From: Chloroflexia bacterium
Lineage (GTDB): Bacteria > Chloroflexota > Chloroflexia > Thermobaculales > Thermobaculaceae
DNA: 31,312 nucleotides
Direction of reading: 5' to 3'
Assembly (NCBI GenBank): GCA_013695265.1
Contig: JACDAU010000195.1
Coordinates: 1-31,312, forward strand
Shown: piece by piece, positions 9,254 through 9,825 of the stretch
Layout of the letters: the number at the start of each line of letters is the position of its first letter
How positions within the stretch are numbered: position 1 is the stretch's first letter
Made by a program: the position numbers and the translations under genes
Notes under the pieces: generated by a model
The model's input: the letters and a program-made list of their open reading frames with translations, nothing else
Told to the model about the DNA's origin: nothing
Databases searched by the model: none

Positions 9254-9282
9254 TTGCGAAGCATGTCACGCTGCGATAGACT
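9254..9282 (+). promoter_or_regulatory. Sigma70-type promoter giving a probably leaderless transcript at GTG 9289
   Basis: TTGCGA (9254-9259), 17 nt, TAGACT (9277-9282), 6 nt, then GTG. Confidence 0.6.
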
Positions 9283-9288
9283 GAAACT

Positions 9289-9765
9289 GTGGAACGAACA
9301 GGCGCGCCCGCCCCCCGAAGCACCATCGCGCATGATTCGCCCCTCTGCCAGGGCGGATGGTGTTTTGCCGCGCTCTGCATGCTTGCCTTCATTGTGGGCG
9401 TTGCCGCTCCACTCGCCTTGATCTCTTGGCGTCTCGGTGCGCATGCGTCGCCCGCCCAGATCGTGACCCATACGCGTGCGTTGCAGCAGGGCCGTACGCA
9501 CCATCACGACAGCGCCGGTCCCATAAGTGGTCACGATGGCGTCACAACTCAGGGCGCTGGCTTGCACCCACTCCATGTGCTGAAGGTGGTCGAGGCGGGC
9601 GCTGGTCCGGGTGAAACTATGTTGGACGTGGGGGCAGTCGCGATGGCCTCTCAGACTCAGGATCGTGCAGCAACCGGACGCTTTGATTGGAACCTGCCGA
9701 CTTTGCTTATCGATGCACAGGCCCTCCCGCAGCCGGCGCGAAGACCACCTATCCTCTGCCTTTGA
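9289..9765 (+). CDS. Hypothetical His-rich single-TM protein ending PQPARRPPILCL; possible leader of the copper-linked cluster
   Basis: Hydrophobic segment WCFAALCMLAFIVGVAAPLALISW, His cluster (THHHD, GHD, HPLH), Pro-rich C-terminus, promoter directly upstream. Confidence 0.6.
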   Translation: MERTGAPAPRSTIAHDSPLCQGGWCFAALCMLAFIVGVAAPLALISWRLGAHASPAQIVTHTRALQQGRTHHHDSAGPISGHDGVTTQGAGLHPLHVLKVVEAGAGPGETMLDVGAVAMASQTQDRAATGRFDWNLPTLLIDAQALPQPARRPPILCL

Positions 9766-9825
9766 GTGATCACATGATCGTACCGGCGCGCCACCTCGGT
9801 ACGCCACGATGAAAGGAGCAGAGTT

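Follow-up and report, generated by a model that had tools for sequence, protein, structure and literature searches.

The open reading frame (ORF) analyzed here lies at positions 9289-9765 on the forward strand of the window (the whole stretch of 31,312 nucleotides that was analyzed, from contig JACDAU010000195.1 of the Chloroflexia bacterium assembly GCA_013695265.1) and encodes 158 amino acids from a GTG start, with the C-terminal end ...PQPARRPPILCL. It occupies a gap of approximately 650-700 nt between an endonuclease V gene (nfi; PF04493), located on the minus strand and divergent from it, and a cupredoxin-like gene on the same strand, whose TTG start (9826) lies 60 nt after the stop codon of the ORF. 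A membrane-protein gene comes next, followed by SCO1/SenC and DUF3105 genes. The features identified at the locus were the following:

9254-9282, + strand: promoter-like site (TTGCGA 9254-9259, 17-nt spacer, TAGACT 9277-9282)
9289-9765, + strand: leader-like gene, 158 aa from GTG, of an unnamed family with a transmembrane (TM) segment, a His motif and a proline tail
9358-9426, + strand: hydrophobic export/anchor segment, residues 24-46, predicted N-in
9427-9507, + strand: His block, W47-x2-G50-x-H52-A-S...H61...G68...H72-H73, a putative extracytoplasmic metal site
9508-9726, + strand: spacer, residues 74-146, unconserved in sequence and conserved in length
9727-9750, + strand: proline-rich tail, P-Q-P-A-R-R-P-P
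9754-9763, + strand: candidate anti-Shine-Dalgarno (anti-SD) segment CUCUGCCUUU, comprising the last three sense codons and the first base of the stop codon
9779-9803, + strand: intergenic hairpin, CGTACCG (9779-9785) / CGGTACG (9797-9803), 7 bp with an 11-nt loop
9812-9828, + strand: SD sequence AAAGGAG (9812-9818) and TTG start (9826-9828) of the downstream gene; SD duplex of -7.9 kcal/mol
9826-10191, + strand: cupredoxin-like gene, 121 aa, membrane-anchored and Cys-less; also found after the leader-like gene in three related genomes (G001-G003)
10188-11774, + strand: membrane-protein gene, 528 aa, polytopic, overlapping the cupredoxin-like gene by 4 nt and without a Pfam or NCBIfam match

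Searches of Pfam, NCBIfam and a word-indexed protein collection with the ORF matched only the window's own protein, and an Rfam scan of positions 8800-10300 (E up to 1) detected neither a riboswitch nor a known leader RNA. When 41 related genomes were searched in six frames, the frame was recovered uninterrupted, at approximately 50% identity, in two genomes of the same genus (G001 and G002), with the same synteny as in the window (divergent nfi, then the ORF, the cupredoxin-like gene and the membrane protein). A copy with 32% identity, again preceding a cupredoxin-like gene, was present in a genome from another genus of the same family (G003). The ORF is a real gene. Its only other in-frame start, ATG 9379, was the one picked by the gene caller; it yields 128 aa and would cost the protein its positively charged stretch and some of the helix. 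Third-position bias was present over codons 31-75 and absent over codons 1-30, which leaves both the 158-aa and the 128-aa starts standing. On the opposite strand, the 308-aa endonuclease V ORF (8466-9392) overlaps the promoter region of the leader-like gene, with its Pfam domain restricted to residues 119-302; the true start of nfi is probably much further downstream, as in the 216-aa ORF of G001.

The first-pass annotation had proposed that the promoter sets the transcription start on the GTG itself, a proposal for which the evidence was mixed. The promoter-like site is weak, as it matches 8 of 12 consensus positions, below the threshold of the consensus scan and hence unreported by it; its TAGACT -10 element ends 6 nt 5' of the GTG. 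On the other hand, the block GCTGCGATAGACTGnnAnTGTGGAACGAA (9270-9299), which extends from just 5' of the -10 element through the first codons, is invariant in three genomes of the genus (G000, G001 and G002) while its flanks diverge, and occurs once in the window. This invariance, together with the absence of an SD sequence upstream of GTG 9289, makes a leaderless start at this codon plausible. The same block was considered as an operator common to paralogous leaders and discarded, as it was found at the orthologous locus only. A terminator-like hairpin was also noticed inside the 5' part of the ORF (9335-9368, + strand), with an 8-bp stem (9335-9358) followed by GGTGTTTTGC; since by eye it is not conserved in G001 or G002, it probably reflects chance.

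A family profile constructed from eight sequences was run against 1.84 billion cluster representatives, resulting in 73 matches with E values of 1e-3 or lower, 28 of which were at or below 1e-10. These 73 matches are clusters at 50% identity, and none of their representatives carries a Pfam name. Related loci were gathered with a 12-sequence alignment, and the counts on protein anatomy given below refer to a 52-sequence alignment. Members are 130-190 aa long and were found in five genomes of Rubrobacteraceae and on 21 contigs from soil metagenomes; in the phylum of the window they are rare, occurring in 6 of the 401 genomes sampled. In the ESM Atlas, the nearest clusters comprised hypothetical proteins without names, and two of the three best-ranked ones were commonest in Chloroflexota; the hosts appear to be Chloroflexota, plus Rubrobacteraceae. 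The CzcI set (PF28244) ranked lower in that search and is a lead only. Paralogous or more distant copies were found in G001, G002, G005 and G007, located 5' of a gene for a 215-255-aa protein with the motif 'AHEHRxVGKY'.

The description of the product as a protein with one TM helix and a His-rich middle, obtained from the window alone, was borne out. The AF2 model shows a helix at residues 18-48 (pLDDT ~95), preceded throughout the family by a variable N-terminus of net positive charge. The net charge of the family is +1.19 before the TM segment and -1.63 after it, and the side before the segment is the more positive one in 43/52 members, a bias that points to an N-in, C-out topology in these sequences. 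The His block follows directly after the helix, with the family pattern W-x2-G-x-H-[AV]-T-x-E-Q-x3-H-x6-G-x3-H-H. Across the 52 sequences, W47, G50, H52, H61, G68 and H73 are invariant and the block contains no indels, while T54 and H72 are conserved in at least 90%; in the window protein, the His-rich segment comprises H52, H61 and H71-73, and a short helix is modeled at residues 55-66. No conserved Cys was found in the 52-sequence alignment, where full conservation is limited to W, G, H, H, G, H and P.

Between the His block and the tail lie approximately 70 residues essentially without sequence conservation, predicted to be disordered (pLDDT 51-58, coil except for one short helix), and yet the distance from the HH to the PP pair is maintained (median 83, sd 6, in 52 members; 81 in the window). 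Contrary to the initial description, the product does not end in RRPP: these residues (151-154; codons CGA AGA CCA CCT, 9739-9750) are followed by ILCL and a TGA stop (9763-9765). The consensus of the family tail is P-x-P-P-[HE]-[RK]-P-P, with P154 invariant and P153 present in 51/52 members, the exception being G002 (SP). The PP pair is placed 3-4 residues before the stop in 37/52 members. RRPP is found in the window and in G001, while G002, the closest relative, reads RRSP; in the family, the position of the Arg in the RAPP arrest motif is occupied by H (17/52), E (17/52) or R (4/52), and that of the Ala by R or K. The four RRPP codons are rare in the window (0.13, 0.04, 0.21 and 0.12), and the codon pairs for PP vary synonymously among members (CCA CCT, CCT CCG, CCC CCA), so that selection acts on the peptide.

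The cupredoxin-like protein matched PF13473 with an E value of 1.3e-4, under the curated cut-off. At the loci whose DNA context was analyzed, the neighboring gene is always on the same strand, 37-201 nt downstream, and is mostly copper-related: a cupredoxin-like gene, a YcnI gene (PF07987) with CopC-CopD, or an 'AHEHR' gene with CopCD. At the Rubrobacteraceae loci, YcnI is located 74-90 nt downstream, with CopC-CopD next wherever the contig extends far enough, and most of the metagenome contigs reaching past the leader-like gene carry a YcnI-type neighbor, mostly at 71-77 nt. In G005 and G007, the 'AHEHR' gene lies between the leader-like gene and a CopC-CopD fusion, in the slot held by YcnI (DUF1775) in the Rubrobacteraceae loci; its product may therefore be a YcnI analogue. 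The comparison of homologous loci suggested in the first-pass annotation came out largely in favor of that annotation: the upstream ORF is conserved, combines a TM segment and a His motif with PP close to the C-terminus, and heads copper-related genes, but its tail is not RxPP. Two neighbors were not obviously copper-related, namely a large LuxR/AAA-type regulator 138 nt downstream at locus L032 (leader end at 1855) and a Tat-signal protein 201 nt downstream at L026 (G299).

Regarding the RNA, the 7-bp hairpin announced before the ribosome-binding site of the cupredoxin-like gene does exist (9779-9803), but its 3' end falls 8 nt short of the SD, which it leaves uncovered, and in G001 and G002 another hairpin (ACGCCA / TGGCGT) occupies the same place. 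A better candidate for an SD-occluding element is the pairing between the last codons of the ORF (9754-9763) and AAAGGAGCAGAG (9812-9823, holding the SD), which appears in the minimum free energy (MFE) fold of the window with a duplex of -12.7 kcal/mol and has the 7-bp hairpin nested inside. This candidate is weak here: the fold of 9730-9845 was not more stable than shuffled sequences (z 0.06), and the anti-SD pairing in the window was not better than ORF-body and synonymous controls (0.14 and 0.22, respectively).

Pairings stronger than that of the window were found in G002, G003, G005, G007, G064 and G097. The anti-SD test compared the last 12 codons with all ORF-body windows and with synonymous recodings at 17 loci, including one from an unpublished genome (G075, L025) on which no conclusion rests. 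The ORF tail was the best SD partner among ORF-body windows in 8/17 loci, and exceeded synonymous recodings at ≤0.06 in 6/17 (G002, G003, G005, G007, Rub20 and G064). In G005 and G007, the codons GAU/UAU-CCU-CCU-AGG give 9-10 perfect pairs with the SD. Moreover, a 13-pair helix between the codons just past the PP and the SD region was 83.8% paired in 15 Rubrobacter-type sequences, against 39-65% when the partner was slid. One of its pairs exchanges between AU, GU and GC (AU5/GU4/GC3), a modest covariation, as the observed values were reached by 21/500 and 42/500 shuffles and the sequences are mutually related. In a model of the ribosome footprint, the mean unpaired probability of the SD core was 0.19 in free RNA and 0.34 with a ribosome on the PP codons, and placing the ribosome 12 codons upstream of the PP gave 0.19 again; in the window itself, a ribosome on the PP left SD accessibility unchanged (0.48 to 0.49). 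The RNA evidence is suggestive for the family and weak at the window locus.

Judged from these sequence features, the leading explanation, at about even odds, is that the ORF acts in cis as a CutF-like nascent-chain metal sensor heading a copper-handling operon. According to this proposal, the N-terminal helix would take the nascent chain to the translocon with its N-terminus inside, and the His block (W47-H73) would then emerge on the outer side of the membrane. Some 81-83 residues further on, a spacer long enough for the exit tunnel plus the translocon, the ribosome would meet PQPARRPP, where slow Pro-Pro bond formation, modulated by EF-P, would hold it at the tail. Loading of the His block with Cu, with the resulting pulling or folding force, could then set the duration of the pause. 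A ribosome positioned on the PP codons, or terminating just past them, would mask the pyrimidine-rich last codons, which otherwise would be free to pair with the SD of the next gene. The outcome would be a switch in the translation of the cupredoxin-like gene and those following it, in which Cu may either induce or repress. Pausing, metal binding and regulation by the leader are all inferred, and so is sensing outside the membrane, which would fit the 83-residue spacing, roughly double that of CutF and CruR and sufficient for the exit tunnel plus the translocon. The points in favor of a CutF-like leader are that the gene is real, that its architecture and spacer length are conserved, that the contexts are related to copper, and that anti-SD segments occur in many loci. 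Counted against it are the weak pairing in the window, RRSP in G002, the modest covariation, the two non-copper contexts, and a length (130-190 aa) that is large for leaders and in many members exceeds the published limit of 150 aa.

CutF from Rhodobacter capsulatus is a 118-aa protein with a Sec signal, a CxxxC motif and the tail PEPEGPPPRL, which senses periplasmic Cu as a nascent chain through a published mechanism (PMC8456105, PMC9973294, bioRxiv 10.1101/2025.02.05.636593). Like CutF, the protein described here is small and predicted to be exported, is encoded by the first gene of a copper operon, and combines a putative metal-binding motif on the exported side with a proline-rich tail that places PP among the 15 C-terminal residues (PQPARRPPILCL in the window, PxPP[HE][RK]PP in the family); the intergenic gap is short as well, and a candidate RNA pairing could hide the downstream SD. 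Unlike CutF, the family has no Cys motif, its metal motif and PP are separated by ~83 rather than ~41-45 residues, and a signal-anchor-like helix is found instead of a demonstrated cleavable signal. By the published rules, a 'CutF-like' protein is shorter than 150 aa, starts with a signal peptide, has PP among its 15 C-terminal residues and is encoded next to a gene on the same strand (PMC9973294). In the present case, the PP is P153-P154 of 158 (within the last 15 in 51/52 members), the same-strand neighbor starts at 60 nt, and the N-terminal part contains a hydrophobic helix predicted to be N-in; the length is either 158 aa (GTG 9289) or 128 aa (ATG 9379), depending on the start. An mRNA structure shielding the SD was present in the MFE fold of the window, where it was not significant, and was supported in several related loci. 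The published CutF-like set contains His-only clusters upstream of HupE/UreJ and a few Chloroflexota members (PMC9973294); in contrast to those clusters, the present family precedes YcnI, CopCD or cupredoxin genes. Likeness to CutF rests here on rules and features, and the family may overlap with the 29 clusters of that study.

The main rival to this reading sees in the product an ordinary, stable accessory protein, anchored in the membrane, that would bind copper outside the cytoplasm and serve the cupredoxin-like protein, YcnI or CopCD as a chaperone or partner. Such a role is unlikely on balance but deserves serious consideration, as the His block adjoining the membrane is conserved, members are longer than most leaders and the RNA pairing in the window is weak; CutF itself was first taken for a chaperone (PMC8456105). 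A stable accessory protein would not, however, readily account for some 70 unconserved and predicted disordered residues whose length is nevertheless kept, for the fact that the only other conserved element stands 3-4 residues before the stop and coincides with the anti-SD segment in many loci, or for a gene that, without exception, comes first and shares the strand of its neighbor.

The position of the anti-SD segments within the last codons could also reflect plain translational coupling without metal sensing, in which the finishing ribosome would open the SD-sequestering helix and the His block would serve elsewhere. In the window, moreover, a ribosome that terminates would cover 9754-9763 more fully than one standing on the PP. 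This reading appears improbable, though, as it leaves unexplained the PP kept through synonymous changes, the constant HH-to-PP distance and the invariant His block.

A further alternative is a hard arrest of the RAPP type, as in CruR, SecM and ApdA, in which RRPP would freeze the peptidyl-transferase center and Cu would relieve the block, possibly via Rho. CruR from Bordetella pertussis (DUF2946/PF11162) is a protein of ~145 aa with a CXXC motif, RAPP three residues before its end and a spacing of 45 residues between them; its sensing is cytoplasmic, its read-out Rho-dependent, and it acts independently of EF-P (PMC9426467). The family resembles CruR in being an exported ORF that heads copper operons (with YcnI, CopC and Sco in the case of CruR), in its C-proximal xxPP a few residues before the stop and in the conserved spacing from metal motif to PP. 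It differs in the lack of CXXC and RAPP and in a spacing of 83 instead of 45 residues. Membership of the DUF2946 type, to which the first-pass annotation had likened the product, did not hold: PF11162 had no match to the window protein at E up to 1 and no member above cut-off in the whole genome, and among the 52 sequences it was the most frequent weak match, sub-threshold in 2/52 (best E 0.0028). Of the DUF2946/CruR hallmarks, the export helix and the first position in a copper-related operon were found, while the Pfam model, CXXC, RAPP ~3 residues from the end and the ~45-residue spacing were not. The broader idea of a leader analogous to CutF or CruR that uses His in place of CxxC is partly supported, by the CutF-like architecture and the copper contexts, though not by DUF2946 membership or a RAPP-like tail.

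Among the arrest uORFs already known are metal-related ones that precede YcnI genes, and RAPP/RGPP uORFs with a TM segment precede YcnI-like or copper-resistance genes in Actinomycetota such as S. lividans (PMC12992588). The family shares with them a small TM protein before YcnI-family genes, conserved His (His/Cys in the uORFs) and a C-proximal Pro-Pro, but departs from their R-[AG]-P-P core, reading [HE]-[RK]-P-P, and R-R-P-P in the window. In published mutagenesis of RAPP, the Arg was irreplaceable, the Ala accepted only Gly, with Ser, Asp and Pro partially tolerated, and the change of Ala to Arg abolished arrest (PMC12992588). The window and G001 do carry an R at the position of the RAPP Arg, and, as in CruR (PMC9426467), the small exported protein that heads the copper operon has the motif close to its C-terminus. 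Nevertheless, with H or E at the Arg position in 34/52 members and R in only 4/52, an R or K at the Ala position, outside the published tolerance, no CXXC, a spacing of 81-83 rather than 45 residues and no PF11162 match, RAPP-type arrest in the family is unlikely, and hard arrest as the account of this locus very much so. As the family shows the sequence features of neither DUF2946 nor the RAPP core, a polyproline pause tunable by EF-P is the likely mode of action, rather than a block of the SecM/RAPP type. Finally, a chance ORF in a GC-rich intergenic region, for which the lack of a family match, a 241-aa ORF on the opposite strand and the unbiased codons 1-30 might speak, is practically excluded, having been refuted by the open frame kept at ~50% identity with synteny, the biased codons 31-75 and family-wide profile matches with E values reaching 1e-55.

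Returning to the CutF-like sensor, the characters that set the family apart allow a more specific and more tentative proposal, to which we give somewhat less than even credence: a distinct class of transmembrane copper-sensing pause leaders in Chloroflexota and Rubrobacteria, possibly of an evolutionary origin independent of DUF2946, with an all-His, Cys-free site directly at the outer face of the membrane, a disordered 83-residue 'ruler' and a PxPP[HE][RK]PP pause site whose own or adjacent codons form the anti-SD. If this were correct, control of copper genes by metal-sensing nascent chains, shown so far only in Proteobacteria (CutF and CruR), would reach Chloroflexota and Rubrobacteria, where the sensor, built from His only, would differ in its chemistry and the pause motif would differ as well; in Streptomyces, arrest alone has been shown to date. 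It would also define a searchable family that screens based on RAPP/RGPP and DUF2946 would miss. The 83-residue spacer would test how far ligand binding outside the membrane can reach to the peptidyl-transferase center, and would give true trans-membrane sensing by a nascent chain an explicit geometry that can be tested. Moreover, copper regulation would be indicated for downstream genes that carry no annotation, those of the Cys-less cupredoxin-like protein, the membrane protein of 528 aa and the 'AHEHR' proteins.

Some additional observations concern the neighboring genes. The 'AHEHR' proteins, of approximately 215-230 aa (L009, 3516-4208; L011, 2057-2713, - strand; L024, 796-1437, - strand), start with a signal peptide, after which 'HEHRxVGKY' is the putative mature N-terminus, end in a TM anchor, and matched no model in Pfam or NCBIfam. 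In G005 and G007, a PadR-family regulator gene is divergent from the leader-like gene (L011, L012 3271-3894, + strand), which suggests an added transcriptional layer at these loci. The 528-aa protein, a homologue of which is also encoded after the cupredoxin-like gene in G003 (L004), shows a predicted signal peptide followed by AHGFGQRY and a Cys cluster (C..C, then CVNCYEC), and may represent an as yet undescribed membrane component with a role in copper or redox processes.
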